NCBI GenBank assembly: GCA_965227435.1
Contig: CBDDGB010000002.1
Location: 678,181-742,180 of the forward strand
DNA: 64,000 bases
Origin: Halioglobus sp.
GTDB taxonomy: Bacteria > Pseudomonadota > Gammaproteobacteria > Pseudomonadales > Halieaceae
Direction of reading: 5' to 3'
In this document: in pieces, positions 3,051 to 46,437 of the stretch
Position numbering within the stretch: the stretch's first letter is position 1
Layout: each line of letters begins with the position of its first letter
Made by a program: the position numbers and the translations under genes
Notes under the pieces: generated by a model
Told to the model about the DNA's origin: nothing
Database searches by the model: none
What the model saw: the letters and a program-made list of their open reading frames with translations, nothing else

Positions 3051-4073
3051 ATGAACAACCCACTGATGCAGCGCCGCGAAGTGCTGGCGCACCTCACCAC
3101 TCTCGGCGTGTTAAGCGTGCTTCCCGCGCCGGTACTGGCACAGATCATTACGAAGACGCCAGGCGAGAGCCCCTTCGGCGGCAACTCGACGGCCGAGGAG
3201 GTAACGGAGGGTCTCGACCTGACCGGCATGACCATGGCGATTACGGGCTGCAACTCCGGCCTCGGCTTCGAAACAATGCGTGTGCTTGCCATGCGCGGCG
3301 CACACGTGATCGGCATCGCTCGCACCCAGGAGAAAGCTGAAGTCGCCTGCGACAGTGTGGACGGCAGAACCACCCCGGCGTTCTGCGATCTCGCCGACTG
3401 GGCATCCGTTGTCGACTGCGCCGATACGATTCGCGCGATGGACGTACCGCTCGATGCATTGATCACCAACGCCGGCATCATGGCGCTGCAAGAGCTAGAG
3501 TTAGTGAACGGCGTGGAAAAGCAGTTCGCCGTGAATCACCTGGGCCACTTCGTGCTCATTAACCAGCTGCGCGACACGGTACTCGCCGCGCCGCAGGGTC
3601 GCTTCGTCGTGTTGAGTTCCATGGCCCACAACGCCGCGGAAGACGGCATCGAGTTCGACAACCTCGATGGCAGCCAGGGTTATGCGCCATGGCGGGCGTA
3701 CGGTGTATCCAAACTGGCTAACGCGCTTTGCGCGCGTGAACTCGCAGCGCAAATCTCCGACACCAACGCGACGGCAAACAGCCTCCACCCCGGCGTAATA
3801 GAAACCAACCTGGGCCGGCATATGCCGTGGTACGTTCGCTGGGGAGCCGCCCTGTTCGGCTGGACGTTTATGAAGAGCATCCCCGAGGGCGCCGCCACGA
3901 CCTGCTATGTAGCCACTAACCCCGAACTCGAGGGGGTAAGGGGTTTCTATTTCGACGACTGCAACGTGGGCGAAGGAACCGAGTACCTCACTGATGACGC
4001 CATGGCAGCGAAGCTATGGCAGGTGTCGGAAGAACTGACGCGCGACTACCTCCCAGCAACGCAAAACGTCTAG
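3051..4073 (+). CDS. SDR oxidoreductase (retinol dehydrogenase/WWOX-like) with Tat-like leader
   Basis: TGCNSGLG, NAGIM, VNHLGHF, YGVSK, HPGVIETNL; AAGGAG RBS before ATG 3051 (ORF-track start 2931 is too long). Confidence 0.88.
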   Translation: MNNPLMQRREVLAHLTTLGVLSVLPAPVLAQIITKTPGESPFGGNSTAEEVTEGLDLTGMTMAITGCNSGLGFETMRVLAMRGAHVIGIARTQEKAEVACDSVDGRTTPAFCDLADWASVVDCADTIRAMDVPLDALITNAGIMALQELELVNGVEKQFAVNHLGHFVLINQLRDTVLAAPQGRFVVLSSMAHNAAEDGIEFDNLDGSQGYAPWRAYGVSKLANALCARELAAQISDTNATANSLHPGVIETNLGRHMPWYVRWGAALFGWTFMKSIPEGAATTCYVATNPELEGVRGFYFDDCNVGEGTEYLTDDAMAAKLWQVSEELTRDYLPATQNV

Positions 4074-5311
4074 CTGACCCCAAGCTCGCGCAGCTGGTTG
4101 CGCAACCAGGAAGACAGCCAGAAGTTCTCGCTCGAGGCCAGCAGGCGCTCGTGCGCGTTGCGCAGTGCGGCATTGACGCGTGGGTCATCGGAAGGCAGAA
4201 GATCCAGCAGGTGTAGCGCCTCTTCGAGCTTACCCGCGTCAAGCTTTTCCTCCGCCCGCGTCACCACCGCCTCGGCACCGCCCGCCAGTTCCACGAGGTC
4301 TGCGTGCACCGCACTCTGCGGCACTGCGTAGAGCTCGGTGGTCGAGCGATGCTTGAACCAACCCGCGTAGTTTTCCCAGATGGCACGCACACTCCAGGAC
4401 ACCTTGCCGTAGCCCTGACCCACTTCAAACTCAGGTGGTAGTGCGATCTCCGCCATCAGGGTATGCAGGTCCTTGCCCGCGTTCATACCCGCCACCGTCG
4501 CATCGTGAACGTGCAGAATCGCGCCGTGTAAAGCGGCGAGTTCAGACTGGATAAGTTCGGCGCCGTGCACGGGACCATGGTGACCGTAGAGAATCGATTC
4601 CGGCTCGAGCGCGCGCACACACTCAACGGCAGCCGCCACGGTAAGCGCATCGCGATAGCGATCTCCGCGAATCGTAACGAGGTTAGGGAAATGACCGAAG
4701 GGACAACCAAACAGGTTGCCGGTGAGGCAGATGCGATGCTGCGGGAGCCAGACTATAAGTGAGTCATTAGTTTCTGCACCGGGGACCGCGATGAGCTCAA
4801 CCTCGAGCCCGCCCAACGTAAAACGGTATTCGCCCTCAAAAAGTATGTCAGGCGTTGGTACATCCTGGTCGGGATAGTCCGTGTAGCCGGCCGCGCCGTA
4901 CTGCTCGAACGCGGCGCCGAACTTTTCAGTGAAGGCAAACGCGGAACGGCTCGCGCGAAACGGCGCAAGGCGCGCATCGTACTCCTGGTGCGCAGGATTC
5001 TCCGCCGTAGCAATCACCTTGAGGCCCGGGTGCTGCTCACGCAGCCAGGCCGTACCGCCCACGTGATCGACGTGGCCCTGGGTAAACACGAGGTAGCGCA
5101 CGGGCGCGTCGTTGAAGCTGTCAAAGTTCTGCTTGATCACGGGCGCCTCGATACCCATGCCGGCGTTCACCTGTATGTTGCCCTCGGGCGTTTCAATAAG
5201 GTACGCGTTGGAAAAAGCCTCCGACAACACGATGAAGTCGTTGATGCGCTCACCCCCAAATGCGGCGGGTTGCGGCTCGACGGGACGGCTCTTGTACAAA
5301 GGTGTTCTCAT
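4070..5311 (-). CDS. MBL-fold metallo-hydrolase, alkyl/aryl-sulfatase-like
   Basis: TQGHVDHVGG, GAETND, GHHGP, GQGYGKVSWSVRAIWENYAGWF (resembles the alkylsulfatase dimerisation region). Confidence 0.82.
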   Translation of the reverse strand: MRTPLYKSRPVEPQPAAFGGERINDFIVLSEAFSNAYLIETPEGNIQVNAGMGIEAPVIKQNFDSFNDAPVRYLVFTQGHVDHVGGTAWLREQHPGLKVIATAENPAHQEYDARLAPFRASRSAFAFTEKFGAAFEQYGAAGYTDYPDQDVPTPDILFEGEYRFTLGGLEVELIAVPGAETNDSLIVWLPQHRICLTGNLFGCPFGHFPNLVTIRGDRYRDALTVAAAVECVRALEPESILYGHHGPVHGAELIQSELAALHGAILHVHDATVAGMNAGKDLHTLMAEIALPPEFEVGQGYGKVSWSVRAIWENYAGWFKHRSTTELYAVPQSAVHADLVELAGGAEAVVTRAEEKLDAGKLEEALHLLDLLPSDDPRVNAALRNAHERLLASSENFWLSSWLRNQLRELGVS

Positions 5312-5325: not shown

Positions 5326-6594
5326 TCAGCGCACTTCCACCTGTACGGGGAAGCGATCGAAATAGAAATTGAAACGTTCACGGAGCGCGTCTGGCTCAAC
5401 GCCAAAGTCACCGCGCAGGTCGTAAACCACCTGGCCATGTTTGCCGCGTGGGTGCGCTGCTACAAAGCCCTCGAGTTCACCGCGGGCCGCTCCCGTAAGC
5501 TCAAGACCTGCCCGCTCGTAGATGCGCTCCACCATCGCCATGTCATCTGCCATAAATTCGTGGAACAACACGTCGATGCTCTGCTCGGGCGCTAGCAGGT
5601 CACGGTCGCGCACACAGGCCTCAAGCAGGCGCACCACGCGATCGCTCCAGTACTCGATCAGTCCTTCAAGGTCGACCCTCTCACGATTCAGCCGCTGGCC
5701 GTAGGCGAGCATCGTGGCGGCGGACTGTATGACGGAAACAGGATCACGATGCGTAATCGCAATAGTGGATTCGGGGAACACGCTGTGCAGCACCGGCAAC
5801 TGCTCAAGATGCTGGGGGCACTTCAGCACCCAACGCGTGTTTTCGCCGGTAAGGTCGCCGTCCTGCCAGGTGAGTATCTTCATCACCGTTTTCATGTAGT
5901 TGTAATGTGGCGTCTGGTCGGTAGACAGGTAGTGGTCGCGCCAGCGCGGTGACATCGACAGCCACTCATAGTTGTAAGACGCAAAATCGGGCCCCATGAG
6001 CTCCAACTCCTCGTGGATATGGTCGGGGTTCATGGGGTGCATTGCGGCGAGCAGGGGCGACATACCCTGCATCATCTGCCAGGTGTCTTCACAGCGCTGC
6101 CAGCGCGGGTCGATACCCTCTGCGGAGACGCCCTCCCCCGGTCGCGGCACAGGCTCGTAAGACTCCCAGAGCGGCAGCGAGCGGAAGCGGGTGTCGGCGC
6201 CCATAAGGTTCAACAGGTGCGTGGTGCCGGAACGCGGCAGCCCCGCGACAATAATGGGCGCGTGGACTTCGATATCGTGAATGGCGGGGTGGCGCTTGAG
6301 CGTGTCCTGTATGAGGAGCCGGCTGCTCGCGTGCTGCAGCAGCTTGTTGCGCAATGTAAGACGACCGATGTTCCGCAGGCCAGCGTCGCCGTTCCATTCA
6401 TCACAGAGCAGGCCAAGGCGCTCGAGGAAATCCTCCGGCCCGAAGTCTTGAAGACCGGTCTGCTGGGCAGCTTCTTCAAGGACACTCTGCACACTGAGGT
6501 CGACATCAAGCGTCTGCGTGAACTCAATCGCGGCGCGCTGCTGCTCTGTCAGTTCGGGCTCGGCGAGGTCTGTTATGCGTATTTTTTCTGCCAT
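5326..6594 (-). CDS. Sulfotransferase family protein
   Basis: 5'-PSB GLPRSGTTHL, WVLKCPQH, 3'-PB THRDPVSVIQS. Confidence 0.9.
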   Translation of the reverse strand: MAEKIRITDLAEPELTEQQRAAIEFTQTLDVDLSVQSVLEEAAQQTGLQDFGPEDFLERLGLLCDEWNGDAGLRNIGRLTLRNKLLQHASSRLLIQDTLKRHPAIHDIEVHAPIIVAGLPRSGTTHLLNLMGADTRFRSLPLWESYEPVPRPGEGVSAEGIDPRWQRCEDTWQMMQGMSPLLAAMHPMNPDHIHEELELMGPDFASYNYEWLSMSPRWRDHYLSTDQTPHYNYMKTVMKILTWQDGDLTGENTRWVLKCPQHLEQLPVLHSVFPESTIAITHRDPVSVIQSAATMLAYGQRLNRERVDLEGLIEYWSDRVVRLLEACVRDRDLLAPEQSIDVLFHEFMADDMAMVERIYERAGLELTGAARGELEGFVAAHPRGKHGQVVYDLRGDFGVEPDALRERFNFYFDRFPVQVEVR

Positions 6595-6636: not shown

Positions 6637-6666
6637 ATATTAATACGTATGTATTAACTTTGTAAA
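6637..6666 (-). promoter_or_regulatory. Sigma70-like promoter containing palindromic operator TTAATAC-N4-GTATTAA
   Basis: Minus strand TTTACA-N18-TAATAT; perfect 7-4-7 inverted repeat at 6640-6657. Confidence 0.7.
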
Positions 6667-16485: not shown

Positions 16486-18984
16486 TTGGCTGAGAGCTAC
16501 CACATCGCCATTATTGGCGCTGGTCCGGCTGGCCTTAGTGCAGCTGGTAGAGCTGCCCACCACGACAGGGAGTCAGGTGTAAGTTCACCCACCTATGTTC
16601 TCCTTGAAGGCTTCTCTACCTTCGCGAAAACCATCCAGAAGTACCAGAAAGGCAAGCACGTCATGGACACGCCTGGCTTCCTGGACCTGCGCAGTCCCGT
16701 GCCCTTTGTCGCGGGTAAGCGCGAGGAAATCCTGGGCGGCTGGCAAAACAGTATCGACACCGACAGCATCAACATTCGCTACAACAGCGAAGTCACGGCT
16801 ATCGAGGGCGAGCGCGGCAACTTCTCTATCAAGACATCAAGCGGCGAGACCATCAACGCCGAGCATGTCGTCATGTCAATCGGCACACAGGGCAACCCGC
16901 GGGCACTCGGCGTAGAAGGTGATGCTGAATCTGACTTTGTGATGTATACCCTTGATGATCCTGAAGAATTCCAGGGCGAGAGCATCGTTGTGGTGGGCGC
17001 CGGCGACGCCGCAATCGAGAACGCCATCGCGCTCGCCGAGTACAACAAGGTCTACATAATCAACCGGCGGAACGAATTCAGCCGCGCCAAAGACGGCAAC
17101 CTCAATGCAGTGCTCGCGGCTATCAACGACAAGGGCCGCGACTTCCACTGCTTCTACGAGACCAACGTGGGCGGCCTCGAACTGCCCGGCGAGCCCGGCA
17201 GCGCGGGCGCCATCATCCTCAATACCGCGACCGGTGAGGAGCGCGTCGAGTGCCATCGCATTATCGCCCGCCTCGGCACCCTCCCCCCGCGCAAATTCGT
17301 CGAGTCCTGCGGCATCGAGATCTCCAGCCCCAGCGCTGACGCGGTGCCGGACGTCGACAACGAATACATGAGTAACGTCCCCGGTCTTTACGTAATCGGG
17401 GCGCTGGGTGGCTACCCGCTGATCAAGCAGGCAATGAACCAGGGTTACGACGTGGTGGAATACATCCACGGCAATCACGTCGAACCGGTCGATACGCCGA
17501 TCCTGAAGAAGAAGTTCCAGGGTCTGCCGATCAAGATGCCGACCCCGGAAGACGTGCTGTCGCTGTACCAGTCAAAGATTCCCATGTTCCGCCGCATGAG
17601 CCCGTTGGCCTTCCGCGAACTCATTATCGAGAGCCGGATACTCGTGGGGCTCGAGCCCGCAGAGTACGAGCGCACGAGCAAGGATGAGGACGAGCACGCC
17701 ACCGTCTTCATCAAGGATGGCGAGCCCGTGTACCAGCACGGCGAATACTCCACGTCGTTCTACACGCTGGTCGAGGGCGATGTGCGCATGCAGCTCGACG
17801 AGGACGGCACGTGGCACAACATTTCGCCCGGCCAGTTCTTCGGCGAGATGAGCCTGATTTCGGGGCGCCCCCGCCAGGGCAGCGCCATTGCCGATCGCGA
17901 CTGCATACTGATCGAGACCCCTCGCCGGATCATGGTCAAGCTCATGAACTCGAACGAGGAAGTGCGCGCCGGCATCGACAGGGTCTTCATCATGCGCGCG
18001 CTGCAGGCCGCGTTCCAGCCACAGCTTTCACTCGACGCGCTTGCCGACATTGCAGGGCGTGTCGAGCCCTGCACCTTCAAGGCGGGCGAAACCATCTTCA
18101 GCCAGGGCGAATCCGGCGACCACCTGCACCTCGTCCGAAGTGGCACCGTGACCTTGTCACGTGGCGACCAGGACATGGTTGTCGCACAGCTACAGTCCGG
18201 CGAACTGGTGGGCCAGATGGCGCTCATGGGCGCGCCGGTGCGCCGCGACACCGCCACGGCTGCGGTGCGCACGGAGACACTGAAGGTCTACCGCGACGAA
18301 TTCCTGGCCATGGTGAACAGCCAGCCGGGGCACGTTGAAGAGCTGCAGGAAGAACTCAGCGAGGTGATACGCCAGACCAACGCCATGGGCTCGCAGCCGG
18401 AGTCTGCGCGCGCCATCGGCTTCCTGATGGACCAGGGCCTCGGCGAGGCCACCAATGCGCTGGTGATCGACGAAGCGCTCTGCGTTGGCTGCGACAACTG
18501 TGAGAAAGCCTGCGCGGAAACCCACGGGGGTATCTCCCGACTGCGCCGCGAGGAAGGCGCATCGCTCGCTTCACTGCACGTGCCCGTTGTTTGCCGTCAC
18601 TGCGAGCTGCCGCACTGCATGAAGGATTGCCCACCGGATGCGCTGCGTCGCGCCGCCTCGGGTGAGGTCTTCATCGATGCAGAAACCTGCATAGGCTGCG
18701 GCAACTGCGAAACCAACTGCCCGTACGATGCCATCAAACTCAGCTACCAGCCGGAGCCGAAGCCTTCGCTCTTCTCCTGGCTGTTCTTCGGTCGCGGCTC
18801 AGGCCCGGGCGAACAGGATGACTTCACGGCCACCGAAGCCTCCAAGAACTCAGGCAAGAAAGCCGTGAAATGCGATGCCTGCATGGATCTCGCGGGCGGC
18901 CCCGCCTGCGTTCGCGCGTGCCCCACAGGCGCCGCGGTCAGGCTGGGCCCCGAACAGTTCGTTGAACTGGTGGAGGCCCGCTAG
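16486..18984 (+). CDS. FAD/NAD(P)H oxidoreductase + two cNMP-binding domains + 4x[4Fe-4S] ferredoxin domain
   Basis: GAGPAG, GAGDAA..INRR; FFGEMSLISGRPR and LVGQMALMGAPVRR; 16 Cys in four clusters (CVGCDNCEKAC, CRHCELPHCMKDC, CIGCGNCETNC, CDACMDLAGGPACVRAC). Confidence 0.9.
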   Translation: MAESYHIAIIGAGPAGLSAAGRAAHHDRESGVSSPTYVLLEGFSTFAKTIQKYQKGKHVMDTPGFLDLRSPVPFVAGKREEILGGWQNSIDTDSINIRYNSEVTAIEGERGNFSIKTSSGETINAEHVVMSIGTQGNPRALGVEGDAESDFVMYTLDDPEEFQGESIVVVGAGDAAIENAIALAEYNKVYIINRRNEFSRAKDGNLNAVLAAINDKGRDFHCFYETNVGGLELPGEPGSAGAIILNTATGEERVECHRIIARLGTLPPRKFVESCGIEISSPSADAVPDVDNEYMSNVPGLYVIGALGGYPLIKQAMNQGYDVVEYIHGNHVEPVDTPILKKKFQGLPIKMPTPEDVLSLYQSKIPMFRRMSPLAFRELIIESRILVGLEPAEYERTSKDEDEHATVFIKDGEPVYQHGEYSTSFYTLVEGDVRMQLDEDGTWHNISPGQFFGEMSLISGRPRQGSAIADRDCILIETPRRIMVKLMNSNEEVRAGIDRVFIMRALQAAFQPQLSLDALADIAGRVEPCTFKAGETIFSQGESGDHLHLVRSGTVTLSRGDQDMVVAQLQSGELVGQMALMGAPVRRDTATAAVRTETLKVYRDEFLAMVNSQPGHVEELQEELSEVIRQTNAMGSQPESARAIGFLMDQGLGEATNALVIDEALCVGCDNCEKACAETHGGISRLRREEGASLASLHVPVVCRHCELPHCMKDCPPDALRRAASGEVFIDAETCIGCGNCETNCPYDAIKLSYQPEPKPSLFSWLFFGRGSGPGEQDDFTATEASKNSGKKAVKCDACMDLAGGPACVRACPTGAAVRLGPEQFVELVEAR

Positions 18985-18986
18985 GT

Positions 18987-19859
18987 ATGCACCAGAGTCT
19001 CCTGAGCTGGCAGCGCTTTCGCTATCTCTACGTGGCGCTCACCGTTGCAGTGGTGAGCATCCTCCTGTACGCGACCCAGGGCGGCAACTCGGCACAGCCT
19101 CCCAACGGCGGCACCTGGCAGGGCTACGTGCTCGGCACGGTAGGCGCACTGCTGATTGTCTGGCTCAGCCTGCTGGGCGTGCGCAAGCGCCAATACAGCT
19201 CCAACGTGGGTTCAGTGCAGGGCTGGGCCTCCGCGCATGTCTACCTGGGTATCGCGCTGTTGCTCGTCGCTACGCTGCACTGTGCCGCGCAGTTCGGGTG
19301 GAATGTACACACGCTGGCCTATGTGCTGATGTGCCTCGTGATCGGCACAGGCATCTACGGACTCTACGTTTACCTGCACCTTCCGCGTGCGCTGGCGCGC
19401 AACCACGCGGGGCGCGACGCGCAGAGCTGGATGAAAGAGCTCAGCGAAGTCGACGATGGCATCCGCGACGCAGCGAGCAAGGTCGACGCCGACCTGCAGT
19501 CCATGACGCTGAGCGCACTGGACCACACCCGACTGGGCGGCGGAGTCATGGCGCAGCTGTTTGCCCAGGACCGTTGCCGCGTGCGACAGGGTGGCAGCCT
19601 CGTGTCCAACAGCGGGCAGGACGTCATGATCAACGAGCTCTCGCGGCGCATACCCGATGCCAGCCGGGTCTCGGAAGCCGAAGTGCTGATCGAGCTACTG
19701 TCGATGTTTGGTCGTCGGCAGGTGATCCTGCAGCTGTTGCGCAAGGACGTGCAATACCGTGCACTCCTCAAGGTGTGGCTCTATTTCCACGTGCCCCTGA
19801 CGATGGCCCTACTCGTGGCCCTCACAGTGCACATTATTGTTGTCTTCCTCTACTGGTAG
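18987..19859 (+). CDS. Integral membrane protein, ferric-reductase-like putative di-heme b
   Basis: About 5 TM helices; His pairs HVYLGIALLLVATLH and HVPLTMALLVALTVH. Confidence 0.75.
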   Translation: MHQSLLSWQRFRYLYVALTVAVVSILLYATQGGNSAQPPNGGTWQGYVLGTVGALLIVWLSLLGVRKRQYSSNVGSVQGWASAHVYLGIALLLVATLHCAAQFGWNVHTLAYVLMCLVIGTGIYGLYVYLHLPRALARNHAGRDAQSWMKELSEVDDGIRDAASKVDADLQSMTLSALDHTRLGGGVMAQLFAQDRCRVRQGGSLVSNSGQDVMINELSRRIPDASRVSEAEVLIELLSMFGRRQVILQLLRKDVQYRALLKVWLYFHVPLTMALLVALTVHIIVVFLYW

Positions 19860-19863
19860 CGCC

Positions 19864-21594
19864 GTGCACTATCTGATCAGAACTCTCACGGGACGCGGCG
19901 GCGACACAGCCCTCGACACAGAGTACTCCGCTGACCAGCTGACGCTCGGCAGCGGTGACAAAGACACGGTGCAGCTGCCCGGCCTCTCCGGCCAGCTCAG
20001 GTTCAGCCCCTCGGGTGATGGCAGCGCAAGTTTCTCCGCCAAGGGCATCAAGGCCACCATAGGCAGCGACACCACCGCCAAGGCAAAGGTCGCGATAGGC
20101 GACCAACTCAAGGTACCTGGCTATGCGATCGAGGTCATCGCGGCGCCCACAGGCTTCGACTTTGCACTGCAGATTGCCTCGGAAGGCGTCAGCTACGCCG
20201 ACAGCATGGATATCGGCGAACGCCTGTGGAGCATGCGCCGCTCCAGCTGGCTTCTCGCGTCACTGGTGCTTGTTCTTTGCTTCATTATTCCACTTGGCGT
20301 GCTGCTTTCACCCGACACGGCCAAAACGCTGCGGGATGCACCGCTGCCCGACGACGGCATGTGGTCCAGCGGCCCGCTGATCAGCGCGCACTCAACAGCG
20401 GGCATAGCGGAGGACTGCCAGTCCTGCCATACAACCCCGTTCGTCATGGTGGAAGACCAGGCCTGCCTGGACTGTCACCGCGACATCAAGGAACACGTGG
20501 ACATCGGCATACACGGCGCGGAGGACTTTGCAGACGTACGCTGTGCCACCTGTCACCGCGAGCACAATGAACCCGCTGCCCTGGTGCGCACAGACAACGG
20601 CCTCTGCGTCGACTGCCACGCCGAGCCCGCCCGTTTCCCGAAAGCCGAGGGTATGGCCGAGGCGCACAAGTTCACGGCCGACGATCACCCCGAGTTTCGC
20701 ATCGATCTTCTGGTACCCAAGGGTCGCGGCGGCTCCATGACCTGGGTGCGCGAGGCGCGCCGGCTTAACGAACCGGGTCTCGTGGAGCAGTCCGGGCTCA
20801 AGTTCAATCACGATGTGCACATGAACCCTGCCAAGGTGAAAGACCTTGTCACCGACGAGGCGCTGGTGTGCGACAGCTGTCACCAGCTTGAGGCGGACAA
20901 CGAGCACTTCGCGCCCATCACCATGGACGGCGAGTGTCGCAGCTGTCACGAACTGACCTTCGACAAGTTCGCACCCAAGATGGAGTTGCCGCACGGCAAC
21001 ACCGAAGCCGCCCTCGTGGCTATGGAAGCGCACTATATTCGCCAGTTTACCGACCCGGAACTGCGCGCCAAACGCTCCAGCGTTCGCGGTTCGGACTCCA
21101 GGCGCCGTAAGCCCGGCAGCAAGCGCAATGAAGGTGAAACCTGCGAAGGCACACCCTTCGAGTGCGGCCGCCAGGAAACCGCCCGACAAGCCGGGGTACA
21201 GTTCAGCAAAACAGGCTGTGTAACCTGCCACAACGTGGTTGATTCCGAGAGCGACAACCTTCTCGACCGCTACTACGTGCAGCCGGTGAAAATCACGGGC
21301 GACTGGTACACGGGCAACCGCTTCGACCATCGCGCCCATATGGCCTTCCGGGGCGAGAACCAGGACGAGGTCTGCATGACCTGCCACGAGGTCATGACCT
21401 CTTCGGTGTCGGAGGACATCCTGATACCCGGCCGCGACAACTGCCTTGCGTGTCACGACGACAACCTGGGCGACACCACCGTTTACTGCGTCAGCTGTCA
21501 CGCATTCCACCTGCCCGCGGGCACACTGTCGACCGAGAGCCGCAACATCGGCTCGATGTCCGGGAGTCCACATGGCAGCACTGAGGGAGAATAA
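19864..21594 (+). CDS. Membrane-anchored decaheme c-type cytochrome with FHA-like N-terminus
   Basis: 10 CxxCH motifs; TM WLLASLVLVLCFIIPLGVLL; GTG start at 19864 preferred over TTG 19837. Confidence 0.88.
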   Translation: MHYLIRTLTGRGGDTALDTEYSADQLTLGSGDKDTVQLPGLSGQLRFSPSGDGSASFSAKGIKATIGSDTTAKAKVAIGDQLKVPGYAIEVIAAPTGFDFALQIASEGVSYADSMDIGERLWSMRRSSWLLASLVLVLCFIIPLGVLLSPDTAKTLRDAPLPDDGMWSSGPLISAHSTAGIAEDCQSCHTTPFVMVEDQACLDCHRDIKEHVDIGIHGAEDFADVRCATCHREHNEPAALVRTDNGLCVDCHAEPARFPKAEGMAEAHKFTADDHPEFRIDLLVPKGRGGSMTWVREARRLNEPGLVEQSGLKFNHDVHMNPAKVKDLVTDEALVCDSCHQLEADNEHFAPITMDGECRSCHELTFDKFAPKMELPHGNTEAALVAMEAHYIRQFTDPELRAKRSSVRGSDSRRRKPGSKRNEGETCEGTPFECGRQETARQAGVQFSKTGCVTCHNVVDSESDNLLDRYYVQPVKITGDWYTGNRFDHRAHMAFRGENQDEVCMTCHEVMTSSVSEDILIPGRDNCLACHDDNLGDTTVYCVSCHAFHLPAGTLSTESRNIGSMSGSPHGSTEGE

Positions 21595-21597
21595 AAC

Positions 21598-23793
21598 ATG
21601 AAATGGCGTGCACTATTGCTCAGCGGGGTTCTTGTCCTCGGAGCCTGCGGAGGCGGCGGAGGTAGCGGCGCACCGGGCCAGGGTTCAGCACCCGGCGATG
21701 ACCCTGCCGGTCGTTCATGCGACGGCTTCTGCGCAGATGCGGGCGCACCGATCTTCCTGACCCAGGCAGACGTCAAACGCATTCTCGCGCAGGCCGTGCA
21801 CCAGGCCGATGCGCTCGGCGCAGAGCAGGTCACCGTCGCCGTTGTCGACCGCGTTGGCAACGTGCTCGCCATCCACCAGAAAGGCGGCGGACAGATTCTG
21901 CGGGTCACCACCGACGACCCCAACGAGGTGCGCGCCGCCCTCGACGGCCTGACGATTCCAGCGGAGTTCAGCCCGGACACGCTCGCAGCCCTGGCCAAGG
22001 CGATAACCGGCGCCTATCTGTCGAGTGAAGGCAATGCCTTCACCACGCGCACCGCGAACCAGATTGTGCAGGAGCACTTCAACCCCGGCGAACGCAACCA
22101 GCCCAGCGGGCCGCTGTTTGGCGTGCAGTTCAGCCAGCTCGCCTGCTCCGACTTCATGATGCGCGCCACCGGCAACGGTGTCAGCGTGGGCCCGCACCGC
22201 TCTCCCCTCGGTATGTCTGCTGACCCGGGCGGCCTGCCGCTCTACAAGGACGGCACGGTAGTCGGCGGCATTGGCGTTCTGTCCGATGGGCTCTACAGCG
22301 TCGATAAGAACATCCTCAACAACGACCGCGACAACGACGAAATGATCGCGGTGGCCGGCTCCTTCGGCTTCGCAGCGCCCAAACCGCGCCGCGCCGATCG
22401 CATCACGGTCGAGGGCAAGACATTCCGCTATGCGGACGTAGACTTTGACAACCTGCCCGTGTCGCCCGAAGACGCGCCTGCCTACGAGAACGTTGGCGGC
22501 ATGCTGGTCGGCGTTAACGGCTATTACACTGTGACTGGCGACGACGACGCCGACATACTCGCGGGCACGGCGTTTACAACACCCGCCTCCGGCGTTCGCG
22601 CAGTCCAGGCCGGCGACTACCCCGCACAGGACGTCGCCGACTTCCAGGAACTGCAGGCCTTTACCTTCGTCGACCAGAACAACGCCGTCCGCTTCCCGCC
22701 CATCGATGGCACAGACGCCGCACAGCTTGCCCAGAATGGCGGCGCCGCGCCGATCAGCGCCGAGGAAGTCACGCAGCTGATGAAGAACGCCCTTGGCGTT
22801 GCACTGCGCGGCCGCGCGCAGATCCGCACCCCCCAGGGCACGCCGATTCGGGTAACCATCTCTATCGTCGACTCGCAGGGCACCATTCTCGGCATGATGC
22901 GAACCCGCGACGGCCCGATTTTCGGGTCTGACGTGTCACTGCAGAAAGCGCGCACCGCCGCCTTCTTCTCATCGACAGATGCCGCCGATGTCCTGCGCTC
23001 AATCGACGACCTGACATTCATTCCGCGACTTGAGGTAGAAGGCCTGCCGCCGCTCGGACCCGTTCCCAACCTGCAGTACATCGAGATCGACCCGGAGCTG
23101 GTTCCACCAGGACTCCCGGTACTGCGAACCTATAGCACGCCGGTCTTTTTCGCAGATTACGTGACAGCCGCCAAGGAGTTCATCGGCCCCACTGCACTTG
23201 AGGACGGTGTGGCCTTTGCAGATCGCTCCGGCGGTAACCTCTCGCGGCCCTTTTATCCCGACGGGATTCGCAATACCGCAAACGGTCCGTTCAGCAAGCC
23301 ATTTGAGCTGGCCGACCCGGGCAGCGTCGAGTGGAGCGTCTTCTCTAGCGGACTGCAGCTCGACCTCGTGCTCGGGCGAGTGCTGCAGCACGCGCTGTTC
23401 TCGCTGGGCGACCCCCGAGTCCCTGACGTTGGCGACAACTGCATCGGCGTTGAGGCGGAAGCACCCCGACGCATCAATAACGGCATCCAGATCTTCCCGG
23501 GCTCGGTGCCCATTTTCCGAGGTGACCAGCTGGTTGGCGCCATCGGTATCTCGGGCGACGGTATCGACCAGGACGACATGATTTCATTCCTCGGGCTGCA
23601 CGAGGCTGGCCTCGCGCTGACGGAAGCGCGACAGGCGGAGGTCGACGCCGGCACGTATACGCCGATCGGCAATGCACCAAAGGATATGCGTGCTGACCAG
23701 CTGCAGCCCAAGGGCGAGCGCTTGCGCTATATCCAGTGCCCGCAAACACCATTTATAGGTAGCAGCGAAAACTTCGTCTGCGACGGCAAATAG
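21598..23793 (+). CDS. Lipoprotein with two GlcG/HbpS-like heme-binding domains
   Basis: Lipobox LGAC; repeats VTVAVVD..G / LAKAITGA / GGLPLYKDGTVVGGIGV and VTISIVD..G / LQKARTAA / GSVPIFRGDQLVGAIGISG. Confidence 0.85.
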   Translation: MKWRALLLSGVLVLGACGGGGGSGAPGQGSAPGDDPAGRSCDGFCADAGAPIFLTQADVKRILAQAVHQADALGAEQVTVAVVDRVGNVLAIHQKGGGQILRVTTDDPNEVRAALDGLTIPAEFSPDTLAALAKAITGAYLSSEGNAFTTRTANQIVQEHFNPGERNQPSGPLFGVQFSQLACSDFMMRATGNGVSVGPHRSPLGMSADPGGLPLYKDGTVVGGIGVLSDGLYSVDKNILNNDRDNDEMIAVAGSFGFAAPKPRRADRITVEGKTFRYADVDFDNLPVSPEDAPAYENVGGMLVGVNGYYTVTGDDDADILAGTAFTTPASGVRAVQAGDYPAQDVADFQELQAFTFVDQNNAVRFPPIDGTDAAQLAQNGGAAPISAEEVTQLMKNALGVALRGRAQIRTPQGTPIRVTISIVDSQGTILGMMRTRDGPIFGSDVSLQKARTAAFFSSTDAADVLRSIDDLTFIPRLEVEGLPPLGPVPNLQYIEIDPELVPPGLPVLRTYSTPVFFADYVTAAKEFIGPTALEDGVAFADRSGGNLSRPFYPDGIRNTANGPFSKPFELADPGSVEWSVFSSGLQLDLVLGRVLQHALFSLGDPRVPDVGDNCIGVEAEAPRRINNGIQIFPGSVPIFRGDQLVGAIGISGDGIDQDDMISFLGLHEAGLALTEARQAEVDAGTYTPIGNAPKDMRADQLQPKGERLRYIQCPQTPFIGSSENFVCDGK

Positions 23794-23803
23794 GGACAGG
23801 GGG

Positions 23804-25684
23804 ATGAACGTGAAGAGAAGCCTACTGTACTCCGCTCTGGTCGCCGGCGTTACCGGCCTGACCAGCCTGTCCACTCCCGCGCTGGCGCAGGATGGCCTGG
23901 AGGCGGCCGAGAGCGCTGCCGAGGCCAGTGACGATCGCCGCGACCGGCGCCGTCGCACGGGCCGCAGCAATCGCAACGACGATTACACGCGAGAGATCGT
24001 TGACGAGACCGCACCCGGCGGTATCCGCGAGGAAAAGGTCGAGAAGCGCACCGGCCCCGGGGCCAGTCGCAACGTACTGCCGCGCAAGTACCGCAACATT
24101 CCCAGGCCGCAGCAGGACCAGTTTGTGGACGCCGTCCCGATGCCAGATCGCTGGCGCATCATGGACAACTTTTACCCTGGCAATATGTGGGACCCGTACA
24201 ACAACCAGAACCTGATCAAGGGCGACGTGCCGCTGCACGACGACTGGTTTGTCAACGTTATCGCCATCAGCGACACGGTGCTGGAGTTTCGCCAGGTACC
24301 TACCCCGGTCGGGGTGCAAAGCACGCGGGACCCGGGGTCTCTTGATGTACTCGGCGCCACTGAACAGCTCACGTTCAACCAGAACTTCCCTATCGAGTTC
24401 GTTTACTACCAGGGCAACACCGTCTTTAAGCCACCGGACTGGGAATTCCGCTTCACGCCGGTGTTTAACTACAACTACACCGAGCTTGAAGAAATCACAG
24501 GGGTCAACGCCAACCCCGACGACGAGGCGCGGCGGCACGATGACCATATCGGCATTCAGACGCTGTTCGTCGACAAGCACCTGAGAAACGTATCCAATCG
24601 GTACGATTTCGATAGCCTGCGCGTGGGCATACAGCCCTTCTCCAGTGATTTCCGCGGTTTCTTGTTCCAGGATGTGCCGTTCGGTGTGCGCCTGTTCGGT
24701 ACACGCAACAACAACATCTTCCAGTACAATCTGGCCTGGTTCCGCCGCATGGAGAAGGACACCAACTCCGGCCTGAACGATGTCACGGAAGACCTACGCG
24801 ATGACGATGTGTTTATCGCCAACCTGTTCTGGCAGGACCTCGGGATCAAGGGTTTCTTCTCCCAGGGAACGATCGCCTACAACCGCAACCGTGAAGATTC
24901 TATCTTCTACGACAGCAACAACTTCATCCAGCGACCGGCCTCCATCGGCCAGGAACGCCCGCGTACGTACGATGTGTACTATCTGGGCTACAACGGCGAC
25001 GGGCACATCGGTCGCCTGAACCTGACGGTGTCGGCATACCTCGCGCTGGGTGAGGAGAACAACGGCGTATTCAACGGCGAGAACTCGGACATCGAGGCAT
25101 TCTTCTTCGCTGCCGAACCGGGCATCGACTTCGACTGGATTCGCCTGCGCGGTTCATTCCTGTATGGCTCGGGCGACGACGATCCCTTTGACAACAAGTC
25201 AACGGGCTTCGACGCGATCTTCGAGAACCCGCAGTTCGCGGGTGCCGACACCAGCTACTGGATTCGCCAGGGCGTGCCGCTGATCGGCGGTGGCCGTGTG
25301 GCGTTGCAACAGCGCAACGGCGTGCTGAATTCGCTGGAGTCCTCGAAGGAACACGGTCAGTCCAACTTCACCAACCCCGGTGTGATCCTTGTCGGCGGTG
25401 GTGTCGACCTGGACATCCTGCCGGAGTTCCGACTCAGCTTTAACGCCAATTACCTGGCGTTTGCCGAGACGGAAGTCCTGGAAGTTGCGCGCGCCCAGTC
25501 TAACGTCGATGAGGAAATCGGCTATGACTTGTCAGCGGCGATTATCTGGCGTCCGTTCATGAGCCAGAATATCGTGGTGCGATTGTCCTACGCGCAGCTG
25601 ATCGCCGGCGATGGGTTCCAGGACCTGTACGGCGATGAGGACGACCCCTACTCCATCCTGCTCAACACGACACTGACCTTCTGA
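23804..25684 (+). CDS. Putative outer-membrane beta-barrel protein
   Basis: Signal peptide (..TPALA), alternating amphipathic strands, C-terminal LLNTTLTF. Confidence 0.8.
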   Translation: MNVKRSLLYSALVAGVTGLTSLSTPALAQDGLEAAESAAEASDDRRDRRRRTGRSNRNDDYTREIVDETAPGGIREEKVEKRTGPGASRNVLPRKYRNIPRPQQDQFVDAVPMPDRWRIMDNFYPGNMWDPYNNQNLIKGDVPLHDDWFVNVIAISDTVLEFRQVPTPVGVQSTRDPGSLDVLGATEQLTFNQNFPIEFVYYQGNTVFKPPDWEFRFTPVFNYNYTELEEITGVNANPDDEARRHDDHIGIQTLFVDKHLRNVSNRYDFDSLRVGIQPFSSDFRGFLFQDVPFGVRLFGTRNNNIFQYNLAWFRRMEKDTNSGLNDVTEDLRDDDVFIANLFWQDLGIKGFFSQGTIAYNRNREDSIFYDSNNFIQRPASIGQERPRTYDVYYLGYNGDGHIGRLNLTVSAYLALGEENNGVFNGENSDIEAFFFAAEPGIDFDWIRLRGSFLYGSGDDDPFDNKSTGFDAIFENPQFAGADTSYWIRQGVPLIGGGRVALQQRNGVLNSLESSKEHGQSNFTNPGVILVGGGVDLDILPEFRLSFNANYLAFAETEVLEVARAQSNVDEEIGYDLSAAIIWRPFMSQNIVVRLSYAQLIAGDGFQDLYGDEDDPYSILLNTTLTF

Positions 25685-25693
25685 GTGACTGCC

Positions 25694-28600
25694 ATGAGAA
25701 TCTCGACAATAAAACTCCGTAGCCTCTCTACCATCGGCCGTCTCGCGGCGGTCGCACTGGTGGCAGGTCTCGCATGGGCCGGCCCGGCAAGTGCCGCCTC
25801 AAAGCTCGTTGCCGTGGAGCGGGATTACATCACCGCACCAGATGCACCACCGAGCCAGAAGGCAGCAGCGGTCACGGCAAAGTCGGAAGGGTGCGAAAGC
25901 TGCCACACGGCAACGGACCAGAAGACCATGCACGCCAACCCGGCAGTCAAGCTGGGCTGTACGGACTGCCACGGCGGCAACGCCGAGGTCTTCCGGCCCG
26001 AAGGGTCATCGACGCTGGATGACGCGCCGTACCTCGCTGCCATGGAATCGGCGCACGTTCTGCCCCGCTACCCCGATGCCTGGCATTACCCCTCCAGCGC
26101 CAATCCCAAGCGCACCTATACGCTGCTCAACAAGGAAAGCCCGGAATTTGTGCGCTTTATTAATCCATCAGACTACCGGATTGCCCGGGAAGCCTGTGGC
26201 GCTTGCCACCTGCCGATCATCCAGGCCGCCGAACGCAGCCTGATGGCCACCTCCGCCATGCTCTGGGGTGGTGCCGCGTACAACAACGGTATCCTGCCGT
26301 TCAAACGCTACATCCTTGGTGAGGCCTACAACCGTGAAGGTGTCGGCACGAGCCTACAGAACCCGATCGAGCCGACCGAGGAAATGATTCAGGCGAGCAT
26401 TCTGCCGCAGATCTTCCCACTGCCCGCCTGGGAGACCATCCACCCCGGCGATATCTTCCGTGTTTTCGAACGCGGCGGCCGCAACATCAGCAACCTGTTC
26501 CCGGAAACCGGGCTGCCCAATGCGCTCGGACTACTGCAACGTATTGAGGAACCGGGACGGCCCGACTTCCGCCAATCCAACCGCGGACCGGGTACAGGCG
26601 CACGTATCGCGGTACCCGTGATCAACATTACCAAGACGCGACTCAACGATCCGCACACCTGGTTTATGGGCACCAACGACCAGCCCGGCGACTTCCGCCA
26701 CTCGGGCTGTGCATCGTGTCACGTGGTGTACGCGAACGACCGCGATCCGCGTCACTCCGCAGGCTACAGCCAGTTCGGCCACACCGGGCGCACGCAGACG
26801 GCCGACCCCACCATTTCCAAGGAAGAAAAGGGTCACCCGCTCAAGCATGAGTTCACACGTGCGATTCCGACCAGCCAGTGTATGTCCTGTCACATGCACC
26901 AGCCGAACATGTTCATCAATACGTACCTCGGCTACACGATGTGGGATTACGAATCGGATGCGCCGCGCATGTGGCCCGAAGAGCAGTTCTACCCCACGGA
27001 CGAAGAACGCCACAACACGCTGGAACGCAACCCGGAGGGCGCTGCACCGCGTGGCAAGTGGAAGGACATCGAGTTCGTAGAACAGGTGTCTGAAATGAAT
27101 GACCAGATGCAGGACACCCAGTTCGCCGACTATCACGGTCACGGGTGGAACTTCCGGGCGATCTTCAAGCGCGACCGCGTGGGCAACCTGCTGGACGCTG
27201 AGGGTAATATCGTCAGTGACGATGACCCCGAAAAGTTCGACAAGGCGGTGCACATGTCCTCGATCCACGTGGATGTGGGAATGCACTGTGTCGACTGTCA
27301 CTTCGCGCAGGATAACCACGGTAACGGGCATATTTACGGAGAGGTCGCGGCCGCCGTCGAGATCGACTGTAAAGACTGCCACGGCTCTGCCGACGCCTAC
27401 CCGAACCTCTACACCTCGGGACCGGCCGCACTCGAGGGCGGCACGAACCTGGGTGCTATTCGCAACCCGGACGGCCGCAGACGCTTTGAGTGGATTGGCG
27501 ACAAGCTGATACAGCGCTCGGTGCTGAACCCCGATCTTGAGTGGGAGATGAGCCTCGTCAAGGACACGGTGACACCTGGCCACGCCAGCTACAACAAGAA
27601 GGCGGCCCGCTCCAAGCTCATGAGCGACGACACCGAGAAGCAGAACTGGGGCCTCAGTGTTGCCAACGAAGACCGGGCGCACTCGGATGACGACATCGAG
27701 TGTTACACCTGCCACACGTCCTGGACAACAAGCTGTGGTGGTTGTCACCTGCCCATCGAGGCGAACAACAAGACAGAACGTCATCACTACGAGGGCGGCG
27801 AAACGAGGAACTATGCCACCTACAACCCACAGGTGGCGCGCGACCAGATCTTTATGATCGGACGGCGCGAAACGGCGAAAGGCGGCAAGATCGCGCCGGT
27901 ACGCTCTACCTCGGCGCTGGTGTTGTCTTCCACCAACTCCAACCGCGAGAAGATCTACGTACAGCAGCCGCCGATCGCATCGTCTGGCTACAGCTCGCAG
28001 GCCATGAACCCGCACTTCCCGCACACGGCGCGTAAGACCGAGACTCGCGTGTGTGACGACTGTCACCTCTCGAAAGAGAAAGACAACAACGCGATCATGG
28101 CGCAAACGCTGATGTACGGCACCGACTTCATCGACCTGCTCGGTTACCACGCTTACGTGGGCGGTGAAGAACACATTACGCCTGTACAGGTCACGGAGTG
28201 GCAGGAACCGCAGGCGGTAATCGGCAGCTATCTGCAGCGTTACGCCTACCCCGACTACTTCGGTGAACACCAGGCGAATGGCAAAGTGCTGAAACACGCC
28301 TACCCGCACGGCAGCGGCCGCGCGGCGTGCATCCAGCTACGCGGTGAATACCTCTTCGTAGCCGAGGGTGATCGCGGCATGCAGGTGTACGATGCCGCCA
28401 GCGTCGGCAACAAGGGTATCTCGCAACGCGTGATAACCGCGCCGTTCAGCCCGCTGGGCCACGACACGCGCATCGAGAGCAAGAACGCCACCTGCGTTGC
28501 CCTCTCGACGACCCAGCCTGTCGCACCGGAGCGCAACGAGGGCGACCTGATGCGCGTGACCAACCAGGAGCAGCCGTTCCAGGCGCACTATACGTACGCG

Positions 28601-29434
28601 TTTATCACGGACTCCGAGGAAGGCCTGATCCTGACCAACATGGACACGCTCATGGATGGCGAGCCGCGCAACAACTTCATGGAGCGCCAGCTGACCTGGA
28701 ACGAGGGCGGCATTCTCGACGGCGCGCGGCACATCATCCTTGGCGGCTACTACGCCTACATCGTCGCCGATGCTGGCCTGGTCGTGCTGAACCTCGAGGA
28801 CCCGCTCAACCCGATCCACGAGGCAACGGTGCCGCTGAACGATGGTCACTCGGTCGCACAGCAGTTCCGTTACCTGTTCGTGACCGATGCCGATGGCCTC
28901 AAGGTGATCGACATCACCCACCCACCGAAGCCGCAGCTCGTGGAAGGCAGCATGATTCCACTCGCCGAGGCCGGCAGGTTGCACCTTGCACGCACGTACG
29001 CTTACGTGGCGGCGGGTTCAGAGGGAATGGCTATCGTGGATATCACCAGGCCTGAGAGCATGAAGCTCTACCAGATGTTCAGCGATGGCCTTGTAGACAG
29101 TCAGGATGTTACTGTAGCCACGACCAACGCATCGCTGTTCGCCTACGTGGCAGATGGCCGCGGTGGCCTGAAAGTAATACAGCTGACCTCGCCCGAAAGC
29201 CAGCCCAAGTTCTACGGCTTCAGCCCGGAACCCAAGCCAGTGCTGATTGCGAGCTACCCGACCAAATCGCCGGCGCTGTCGCTGTCGCGAGCCCTTGAGC
29301 GGGACCGCGGTGTTGACGAGACCGGTGGCCAGGTCGCGGTATTCGGACGTGTGGGCTCGCGCCCGCTGAACCTGGAAGAGATGCAACGCCTCTTCCTCGA
29401 TGATCAAGGCAAACCATGGTATGTAGAAAACTAG
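25694..29434 (+). CDS. Exported decaheme c-type cytochrome with C-terminal LVIVD-repeat domain
   Basis: Signal peptide (..GPASA); 10 CxxCH motifs; repeats such as YLFVTDADGLKVIDITHP and YAYVAAGSEGMAIVDITRP; alternative GTG start 25685. Confidence 0.88.
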   Translation: MRISTIKLRSLSTIGRLAAVALVAGLAWAGPASAASKLVAVERDYITAPDAPPSQKAAAVTAKSEGCESCHTATDQKTMHANPAVKLGCTDCHGGNAEVFRPEGSSTLDDAPYLAAMESAHVLPRYPDAWHYPSSANPKRTYTLLNKESPEFVRFINPSDYRIAREACGACHLPIIQAAERSLMATSAMLWGGAAYNNGILPFKRYILGEAYNREGVGTSLQNPIEPTEEMIQASILPQIFPLPAWETIHPGDIFRVFERGGRNISNLFPETGLPNALGLLQRIEEPGRPDFRQSNRGPGTGARIAVPVINITKTRLNDPHTWFMGTNDQPGDFRHSGCASCHVVYANDRDPRHSAGYSQFGHTGRTQTADPTISKEEKGHPLKHEFTRAIPTSQCMSCHMHQPNMFINTYLGYTMWDYESDAPRMWPEEQFYPTDEERHNTLERNPEGAAPRGKWKDIEFVEQVSEMNDQMQDTQFADYHGHGWNFRAIFKRDRVGNLLDAEGNIVSDDDPEKFDKAVHMSSIHVDVGMHCVDCHFAQDNHGNGHIYGEVAAAVEIDCKDCHGSADAYPNLYTSGPAALEGGTNLGAIRNPDGRRRFEWIGDKLIQRSVLNPDLEWEMSLVKDTVTPGHASYNKKAARSKLMSDDTEKQNWGLSVANEDRAHSDDDIECYTCHTSWTTSCGGCHLPIEANNKTERHHYEGGETRNYATYNPQVARDQIFMIGRRETAKGGKIAPVRSTSALVLSSTNSNREKIYVQQPPIASSGYSSQAMNPHFPHTARKTETRVCDDCHLSKEKDNNAIMAQTLMYGTDFIDLLGYHAYVGGEEHITPVQVTEWQEPQAVIGSYLQRYAYPDYFGEHQANGKVLKHAYPHGSGRAACIQLRGEYLFVAEGDRGMQVYDAASVGNKGISQRVITAPFSPLGHDTRIESKNATCVALSTTQPVAPERNEGDLMRVTNQEQPFQAHYTYAFITDSEEGLILTNMDTLMDGEPRNNFMERQLTWNEGGILDGARHIILGGYYAYIVADAGLVVLNLEDPLNPIHEATVPLNDGHSVAQQFRYLFVTDADGLKVIDITHPPKPQLVEGSMIPLAEAGRLHLARTYAYVAAGSEGMAIVDITRPESMKLYQMFSDGLVDSQDVTVATTNASLFAYVADGRGGLKVIQLTSPESQPKFYGFSPEPKPVLIASYPTKSPALSLSRALERDRGVDETGGQVAVFGRVGSRPLNLEEMQRLFLDDQGKPWYVEN

Positions 29435-31703: not shown

Positions 31704-31727
31704 GGCAGCCAGGCAAGGAGAACCATC

Positions 31728-31826
31728 ATGGCAGAAGAGCATCAACCGATCGGCTGGCAGTACATCTGGGGAGTCGCAATCGTGGGCACCGCCCTCGGAA
31801 TAGCGCTCGTTTACGTACTCCTGTAA
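31728..31826 (+). CDS. 32-aa membrane microprotein paralogous to the PP2C C-terminal helix
   Basis: AAGGAG RBS 31715-31720; MAEEHQPIGWQYIWGVAIVGTALGIALVYVLL*; not in the ORF track. Confidence 0.8.
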   Translation: MAEEHQPIGWQYIWGVAIVGTALGIALVYVLL

Positions 31827-31858
31827 ACGCAGTCGACGGAGAATCTGGGAGAAAGAAC

Positions 31859-33834: not shown

Positions 33835-33914
33835 GGTCCGACCCGGCCGAATTTTTAATGACGATCTGCGGCTCTTGGCCTAGTATATAACTGCTCGCCG
33901 ACAACACTAATTAC

Positions 33915-35408: not shown

Positions 35409-35426
35409 ACCGCCACCGGGCACAGT

Positions 35427-37004: not shown

Positions 37005-37045
37005 CTCGTGCTGCATTAAAGGGCCCAACCTAAGAGGACTTGACC

Positions 37046-46396: not shown

Positions 46397-46418
46397 TGCG
46401 CACCCCCACTTAATCATC

Positions 46419-46437
46419 TAAACTTATTATAAGTTTA
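46419..46437. promoter_or_regulatory. Perfect 9-1-9 palindrome, putative MarR operator
   Basis: TAAACTTAT-T-ATAAGTTTA in the short divergent intergenic region. Confidence 0.75.

Follow-up and report, generated by a model that had tools for sequence, protein, structure and literature searches.

A conserved palindrome at two predicted promoters of a Halioglobus genome points to a PsrA-like TetR-family regulator

Genes and paired palindromes in the window

The 64-kb stretch of Halioglobus DNA analysed here (the window) has a G+C content of 61%. It carries two transcription units, 42 kb apart, each with the same palindrome at its predicted promoter (Table 1). One unit encodes a sulfotransferase and, as the second gene of the operon, an MBL-fold protein whose gene starts 14 nt past the end of the sulfotransferase gene. 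The other encodes a short-chain dehydrogenase/reductase (SDR).

Table 1. Positions of the sites, genes and gene groups discussed in the text
Feature	Position in window	Strand	Description
MBL-fold protein gene	4070..5311	minus	413 aa; alkylsulfatase dimerisation domain; PF00753 + PF14863
Sulfotransferase gene	5326..6594	minus	422 aa; PAPS-type, cytosolic, Stf1/Stf9-like; PF13469 1e-35
Predicted sigma-70 promoter, sulfotransferase-MBL operon	6637..6666	minus	-35 TTTACA (6666-6661), 18-nt spacer, -10 TAATAT (6642-6637)
Predicted operator, site 1	6641..6656		TAATAC-GTAT-GTATTA; 7-bp arms TTAATAC/GTATTAA; 46 nt upstream of sulfotransferase start codon
Redox gene cluster	16486..31703		ends with PP2C phosphatase
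Signalling/cell-fate gene row	30717..39748		begins with PP2C phosphatase
MarR gene	45950..46417	minus	in operon with SDR and enoyl-CoA hydratase genes
8-1-8 palindrome	46420..46436		in 36-bp gap
SDR gene	47495..48259	minus	254 aa; 3α-hydroxysteroid dehydrogenase/carbonyl reductase-like; PF13561/PF00106
Predicted SDR promoter	48332..48361	minus	-35 TTGATC, 18-nt spacer, -10 TAAAAT
Predicted operator, site 2	48336..48351		TAATAC-GGTC-GTATTA; exact match; 76 nt upstream of SDR start codon
PEP-CTERM-like ORF	48593..49177		194 aa; signal peptide
DUF1499-DUF3604 pair	49693..51582		divergent from SDR gene
Lipid metabolism genes	58095..63999		right end of window

Both PAPS-binding motifs of the sulfotransferase (GLPRSGTTH and THRDPVSVIQS) are intact. 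Its only solved relatives are PDB 2zq5 (2e-36) and 2z6v (1e-34), both deposited as uncharacterised proteins, which we take to be the mycobacterial sulfotransferases Stf1 and Stf9. No identical record was found for this protein by exact look-up, and homologues were used. There are 7322 of them (>7000 at E <= 1e-20), mostly from marine samples, and the identity across Halieaceae and relatives is 64-89%. The best PDB matches of the MBL-fold protein are the sec-alkylsulfatase Pisa1 (4av7, 2e-19), PSdsA and SdsA1. It has the MBL and dimerisation domains in common with SdsA1 and Pisa1 but is shorter (413 aa vs ~650 aa), lacking their SCP2-like, substrate-binding C-terminal domain, and its metal motif (residues ~77-82) reads QGHVDH where the family has HxHxDH, the first His being Gln. 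Of the features of MBL-type (class III) alkylsulfatases, the two domains are thus present and HxHxDH and the SCP2-like domain are not. For these reasons we call the protein only alkylsulfatase-like and not a demonstrated sulfatase. The altered motif is a caution against assuming sulfatase activity, and the chemistry of the protein may be different from sulfate-ester hydrolysis.

Among solved structures, the SDR matches the two 3α-hydroxysteroid dehydrogenases 2dkn (2e-44) and 1fjh (7e-42) over residues 2-250, and all others at 1e-16 or weaker. The cofactor motif TGSASGIG, the catalytic Ser and the YMQTK motif (Tyr, Lys) are present. Full-length similarity, cofactor motif and Ser-Tyr-Lys place the protein with the 3α-hydroxysteroid dehydrogenases/carbonyl reductases (3α-HSD/CR), an assignment made from sequence; its score for NCBIfam PRK12428 is below the cut-off of that model. 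The DUF1499-DUF3604 pair lies upstream of the SDR gene, in divergent orientation, in the window and in two relatives (L005, L139). In the window, an ORF with a PEP-CTERM-like C-terminus (VPLPGG, a hydrophobic stretch and RLRK) stands between this pair and the SDR promoter with site 2. This ORF is missing from the same intergenic region in both relatives, which indicates a recent insertion beside site 2.

Other gene groups in the window were also annotated. The redox cluster contains an 832-aa fusion of a pyridine-nucleotide-disulfide oxidoreductase, two cNMP-binding domains and 4Fe-4S domains, several multihaem cytochromes (paired CXXCH, MtrC-like domain matches) and a 1249-aa LVIVD-repeat protein. 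It looks like a module for extracellular electron transfer, controlled by cyclic-nucleotide or phospho-signalling. The adjoining row of signalling and cell-fate genes encodes the PP2C phosphatase, a protein with two FHA domains, an autotransporter, a Ser/Thr kinase and a 902-aa Sel1-repeat/coiled-coil/caspase (Peptidase_C14) protein; a single lipase-like gene, unrelated and on the other strand, breaks the row. The lipid metabolism genes encode a fatty-acid hydroxylase, a PAF-acetylhydrolase/chlorophyllase-like esterase, a glutathione peroxidase, a monoacylglycerol-lipase-like hydrolase, an NAD-dependent glycerol-3-phosphate dehydrogenase and a WS/DGAT wax-ester synthase. In Pfam scans of essentially all ORFs, the MarR gene was the only classical HTH regulator gene found in the window. 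The gap between its operon and a luciferase-like monooxygenase gene on the plus strand contains a perfect 8-1-8 palindrome, AAACTTAT-T-ATAAGTTT, and a similar one is found at the same place in L005 (~11873). It is probably a MarR operator, unrelated to the palindrome at the two promoters.

The original prediction placed one operator at two loci about 42 kb apart, and the scan of the window bears this out. The pattern TAATAC-N4-GTATTA (TAATACNNNNGTATTA) has exactly two matches in the 64 kb, sites 1 and 2. From base composition, 0.00045 matches per window are predicted, which gives a probability of about 1e-7 for two or more, and none of 100 dinucleotide-preserving shuffles of the window produced a match. 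When up to three mismatches were allowed, two extra matches appeared, the number predicted by chance. Scored with a position weight matrix (PWM) of the orthologous sites, sites 1 and 2 reach 32.2 and 30.5 bits and the third-best match in the window 15.3 bits, the maximum of simulated sequence; the same sites went into the matrix, which makes these PWM statistics partly circular, but the exact-pattern counts are free of this circularity. The flanks of the two sites have no similarity beyond the palindrome and promoter pattern, so the pair is not a duplicated segment.

On the minus strand, site 1 reads TTTACA-AAGTTAATACATACGTAT-TAATAT and site 2 TTGATC-TTGATAATACGACCGTAT-TAAAAT, in agreement with the earlier reading letter for letter. 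In a consensus promoter scan, each of these was the sole promoter-like match of its region (6500-6800 and 48200-48650, respectively). At both predicted promoters, the palindrome occupies spacer positions 5-18 and the first 2 nt of the -10 hexamer. The equal offset, the 18-nt spacer and the overlap with the -10 box, all claimed originally, were therefore recovered by the scan. We regard the two palindromes as conserved sites of the kind that a repressor would bind. As an inverted repeat with 6-7 bp arms and a 4-bp centre, the putative operator suits a homodimer.

Conservation of the palindrome and of the gene module

Conservation was assessed in one genome per species, at 80 loci from Halieaceae, Spongiibacteraceae, Litorivivens and Endozoicomonas with sulfotransferases 64-89% identical to that of the window. 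Sites with at most one mismatch are present in 27 of the 80 loci and lie upstream of the sulfotransferase operon in 26; in the 1.4 Mb scanned, only one such site, in L029, stands away from this operon. PWM sites of at least 18 bits occur within 3 kb upstream of the sulfotransferase in 36 of the 80 loci, among them loci of Spongiibacteraceae, Litorivivens and Endozoicomonas. In total, 43 PWM sites were counted in 222 kb upstream of the sulfotransferase vs 8 weak ones in 1.18 Mb elsewhere, i.e. 0.19 vs 0.007 per kb, a 28-fold enrichment. The original prediction depended on the motif being conserved and enriched upstream of orthologues, and both were found. As judged from these counts, the motif is a phylogenetic footprint upstream of the sulfotransferase.

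The motif outlasts the DNA around it. It occurs in exact form 35-50 nt upstream of the sulfotransferase in GCA_030428835.1, the closest genome (sulfotransferase 89% identical), and in a 4.5-Mb Halioglobus genome (76%), and the surrounding DNA is unalignable between these two and the window. The orthologue of site 1 is kept in L001/L007, L003/L012 and ~34 further loci with diverging flanks, and the motif persists down to 64-76% sulfotransferase identity. Endozoicomonas numazuensis (L047) has two sites upstream of the sulfotransferase. In the 76%-identity Halioglobus genome (L003), a MarC gene is inserted beside the motif, and the motif survives. A divergent bactofilin gene was also considered to be co-regulated from site 1. 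This candidate was rejected because MarC splits the pair in L003 and the site stays with the sulfotransferase.

The SDR locus gives a similar picture. By direct BLAST, the true orthologues of the window SDR are in L005, L006, L036, L136, L137, L139 and L140. The orthologue of site 2 lies 79-80 nt from the SDR start codon in L005 (SDR 86% identical) and L139 (91% identical). GCA_030428835.1 likewise has a site at each of the two transcription units known from the window, in L001 and L005, which lie on a single contig. In L138, an SDR orthologue with 80% identity lies in a P450-SDR-OYE cluster where no operator site is present. An operator upstream of the sulfotransferase was likewise not detected in 44 of the 80 loci, including L010, L011, L014, L015, L018-L024, L029-L032, L034 and L041. 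These siteless loci, together with L138, indicate that the regulation is lineage-specific, widespread though not universal. Many of them belong to Halioglobus and Haliea, and most of these have a DUF3313 lipoprotein gene inserted directly upstream on the same strand. This arrangement suggests that operator control was lost or replaced in the DUF3313-carrying subclade.

The promoter geometry has a narrower distribution than the motif. In L007, the closest relative, TTTACA is found at the same position relative to site 1. The geometry of site 2 is TTGATC-18-TAAAAT in L139 and TTGAAA-18-TAAAAT in L005, and the operator thus lies over the spacer and -10 box of a predicted promoter in L005, L007 and L139. 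In several Halioglobus genomes, the site is closely preceded by a better predicted promoter, TTGCCx-17-TATATT; relative to the predicted start site, the operator would there occupy about -3 to +13 and would not lie in the spacer. The exact geometry is therefore confined to the close relatives of the window and is not universal. A predicted operator in the spacer and -10 box, or over the start site, would in either case be consistent with repression.

The arrangement of genes in relatives links the two loci of the window. By ORF clustering, the MBL gene adjoins the sulfotransferase in 45 of 73 loci. The SDR orthologue, 74-85% identical to the window SDR, shares an operon or cluster with the sulfotransferase (ST) in five other loci. 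In L137, a TetR-family gene is divergent from VOC-ST-MBL-LLM-SDR, and L136 has OYE-TetR-SDR211 | VOC-ST-MBL-LLM-SDR, with TetR again divergent from the same five genes. L006 has VOC-ST-MBL-SDR. L036 and L140 have ST...OYE-SDR, with the SDR 3 kb downstream of the sulfotransferase operon. The proposed link between sulfation and hydroxyl-oxidation genes is thus upheld by gene order. OYE/BaiCD-like, P450, BVMO-like and KstD-like genes are further neighbours in related loci. From this gene order, we consider the sulfotransferase, MBL and SDR genes, with their VOC, luciferase-like, OYE-like and P450 neighbours, to be one conserved functional module. The best-supported reading is that, in the lineage of the window, the operon was split into a sulfotransferase-MBL part (~6.6 kb) and an SDR part (~48.3 kb).

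A different motif, AATATAnnCnGTTTTACC, was noted in a divergent region between LysR and ferredoxin-reductase-like (NAD_binding_1) genes, a few kb from the sulfotransferase (L007:17947, L012:20718, L017:16349, L020:17609, L023:20031, L029:20265, L034:16401 and L037:10759). It is probably a LysR site, and its weak score with the TAATAC matrix arises only because it is AT-rich.

A candidate TetR-family repressor and its alternatives

A TetR-family gene adjoins the motif in L042, L045, L050, L052, L072, L081, L086, L116-120, L126, L136 and L137. Its product has 215-225 aa, with PF00440 above and PF17939 just below cut-off. The gene and the operon diverge in L042, L045, L050, L052, L072, L126, L136 and L137, and their common intergenic region contains either a single site or a pair 17 bp apart. 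In Haliea salexigens (L086), L081 and L116-120, it is co-directional, and the site lies between TetR and ZnADH-MBL-ST. An SDR gene that adjoins TetR was considered as the orthologue of the window SDR and rejected, since direct BLAST shows it to be a different SDR.

A metagenome scan centred on the TetR gene, and thus independent of the sulfotransferase, revealed a second TetR subgroup, 40-50% identical. In at least 14 loci, the TetR gene of this subgroup is preceded, at a distance of 47-110 nt, by a site of its own, TTAAG(A/G)C-N4-GTATTAT. The neighbours of this subgroup are DUF3604, a CitMHS/Na-sulfate-symporter-like transporter, SDRs and, once, a KstD-like flavoprotein, and two loci have an additional strong site before a neighbouring SDR gene. 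A third subgroup shares the TTAATAC half-site but has a 3-bp centre. The recognition region AAGQKN(P/R)NA(L/A)QYH(F/Y) is kept in all four TetR subgroups. The occurrence of the half-site beside four divergent subgroups indicates that it follows the protein clade.

Two additional observations concern these neighbourhoods. The most divergent TetR subgroup (L055:2801-2874, L074:8542-8614, L080:8585-8652) has two TTAATAC palindromes per intergenic region, at least one of which in each locus has a 3-bp centre, e.g. AGTTAATAC-CCG-GTATTAACT. Operator spacing looks as though it co-varies with the TetR subgroup in these loci. DUF3604, present near site 2 in the window, recurs beside the class-2 TetR in metagenome loci L097, L103-L105, L108-L112, L114 and L126, and may be part of the same functional neighbourhood.

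The suggestion of a TetR-type operator is therefore strengthened by a TetR-family gene that stands beside the motif in many genomes, usually in divergent orientation. TetR_N genes adjacent or divergent to the targets are found in the relatives and not inside the window. No TetR gene was detected in the 64 kb, either with the TetR clade as tblastn query or in Pfam scans of essentially all ORFs; the original prediction, too, had found no regulator in the window. In sequencing runs X1/X2, the window is contained at 100% identity in a 113-kb contig of depth 66; among public RNA runs, none was found to contain it. The same runs contain a 145-kb contig of depth 61, which is colinear with the TetR(class 2)-DUF3604 locus at ~81% identity. 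The partly reconstructed N-terminus of its TetR, ...SLNEITVAAGQKNRNALQYHFGGRDGLLQAIID, carries the recognition region of the clade. The similar depths (66 vs 61) suggest, short of proof, that the two contigs come from one genome, in which case the organism of the window would encode the predicted TetR on another contig.

On this evidence, we propose that the two operators are bound by one PsrA-like homodimeric TetR repressor encoded outside the window, which would co-regulate the parts of a split operon. We estimate the probability of this reading at about 0.7. One TetR of the PsrA-like clade with AAGQKN(P/R)NALQYHF would bind both palindromes as a homodimer. The ancestral arrangement would be that still seen in related Cellvibrionales, in which the regulator is divergent from an operon of VOC/glyoxalase-like, sulfotransferase, MBL, luciferase-like oxidoreductase and 3α-HSD-like SDR genes. 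After the operon split, each piece would have kept its own copy of the operator on the core promoter, over the spacer and first -10 bases, where the bound TetR dimer would block RNA polymerase. A small hydrophobic ligand, probably the substrate or an intermediate of the pathway, would release the repressor and both loci would be switched on together.

It could be argued that the shared operator is real but bound by a regulator of another family (MarR, LysR or another factor), the adjacency of TetR being coincidental or limited to some lineages. This would fit a window without a TetR gene, the MarR gene 2 kb from site 2, and the LysR gene that L001 and L003 have at 6-9 kb from the sulfotransferase. 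However, the MarR promoter region has its own, different 8-1-8 palindrome, also in L005, and no TAATAC site, and the LysR intergenic region has a different conserved motif. Neither gene travels with the motif across genomes, whereas TetR does so in four divergent subgroups. MarR was rejected as the regulator because of its own palindrome and its lack of co-occurrence with the motif, and LysR because its intergenic motif differs. We consider another family unlikely. A related argument accepts the same regulator and makes it an activator or dual regulator instead of a simple repressor released by a ligand. In some genomes, the site could indeed lie upstream of an alternative -10 box, and tandem sites 17 bp apart would permit more complex control. 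Against this, the site covers the spacer and -10 box of the sole promoter-like match in the window and its closest relatives. In L001, only ~43 nt separate the centre of the site from the start codon, and a Shine-Dalgarno-like GGCGG falls within them, which leaves no room for class II activator geometry. TetR-family proteins are overwhelmingly repressors, and activation by this one seems to us quite improbable.

The two sites might also have no regulator in common and have arisen by chance, by convergence of AT-rich promoter elements, as a copied small repeat or as an RNA hairpin of the 5' leader. Both overlap AT-rich, -10-like sequence, which any promoter needs at 61% GC. Nevertheless, the upstream half-site TAATAC, which has no promoter role, is conserved as well as the downstream one. 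The exact matches far exceed the number predicted by composition, the flanks are dissimilar, and the motif is kept across bacterial families. The consensus of 34 sites is wT-TAATAC-RnnY-GTATTA-Aw, and deviations in the arms leave 44 pairs broken vs 9 compensated. The arms thus degenerate independently, which fits recognition of DNA by a protein and not an RNA stem. The comparative data appear to have effectively refuted this explanation, to which we assign only a very small residual probability. A single TetR repressor acting at both loci remains the reading that we prefer.

Relation to known systems and biological meaning

PsrA is a fatty-acid-responsive TetR-family repressor of Pseudomonas and Vibrio (PA3006, PDB 2fbq) with the operator C/GAAAC-N2-4-GTTTG/C. 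Its family (NF053516) is the best named NCBIfam relative of all three TetR subgroups, and 2fbq is the only solved structure that matches the TetR profile over its whole length. Both operators have short A-rich arms that end in AC, a spacer of ~4 bp and then GT, and some sites beside TetR read TAAAAC-N4-GTTTTA. Like PsrA, the candidate TetR is predicted to act at several loci on catabolic genes of lipid type, and in some genomes also on its own gene. However, the subgroups score 33.9, 49.4 and 63.2 bits vs an equivalog cut-off of 300 for NF053516, and these scores are so far below it that the TetRs are not PsrA orthologues. The half-site is TTAATAC here and CAAAC for PsrA, and the predicted targets are sulfotransferase, MBL and 3α-HSD genes as opposed to fadBA, etf and rpoS.

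Two systems of steroid catabolism are also comparable. KstR and KstR2 are actinobacterial TetR-family repressors of this process that are released by a pathway intermediate, and the KstR operator is TnnAACnnGTTnnA. They resemble the proposed system in their family, in short palindromic operators that overlap promoters at several unlinked loci, and in the coordination of genes acting on the steroid nucleus, a steroid being only presumed here. They differ in operator sequence and phylum, and no specific sequence relationship of the TetR clade to KstR or KstR2 was found beyond the HTH of the family. The hsdA gene of Comamonas testosteroni, which encodes 3α-HSD/CR, has a repressor-controlled, steroid-inducible promoter with RepA/RepB, HsdR and others as regulators. 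The window SDR is closest to 3α-HSD/CR among solved structures (1fjh, 2dkn), and a palindromic operator is found at the promoter before the gene in both. In contrast, the C. testosteroni regulators are not this TetR, their operators differ, and hsdA is not known to be linked to a sulfotransferase or MBL sulfatase. Literature searches found no specific account of the operator or operon described here.

The substrate may be a sulfated secondary alcohol of a steroid-like type. The 3α-HSD-like SDR, the neighbour genes, the inverting action of MBL sulfatases and the presence of steroid degraders in these families point in this direction. Halieaceae and Spongiibacteraceae include confirmed steroid degraders, and marine Cellvibrionales have already been shown to contain such organisms (PMC5790920). 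The MBL-type enzyme Pisa1 inverts the carbon centre when it hydrolyses sec-alkyl sulfates (PMC3920027), and inversion of this kind would make the opposite alcohol epimer available for oxidation by an HSD. A more speculative extension, which we think rather unlikely, is an undescribed pathway for sulfated secondary alcohols, e.g. the 3β-sterol sulfates that occur in marine algae and invertebrates, under the control of a PsrA-like TetR with the sulfated lipid as its signal. If so, an inverting, MBL sulfatase-like enzyme would turn a 3β-sulfate into a 3α-alcohol, from which the 3α-HSD would then give the 3-ketone. In reverse, the sulfotransferase and the inverting sulfatase would together change one epimer of an alcohol into the other, with the sulfate ester as intermediate.

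The system proposed here, a TetR operator with a small regulon, is of an ordinary kind and is found in an unstudied clade. With this analysis, what were two anonymous palindromes become a regulon that can be tested and for which a candidate regulator is named. The regulon would link an Stf-like sulfotransferase, an alkylsulfatase-like MBL protein and a 3α-HSD-like SDR, a module that is widespread in marine Cellvibrionales. It also suggests that an operon can split and its parts stay co-regulated through a copied operator. The pair of operator and TetR provides an experimental handle on the inducer and thereby, by ligand screening, on the substrate.
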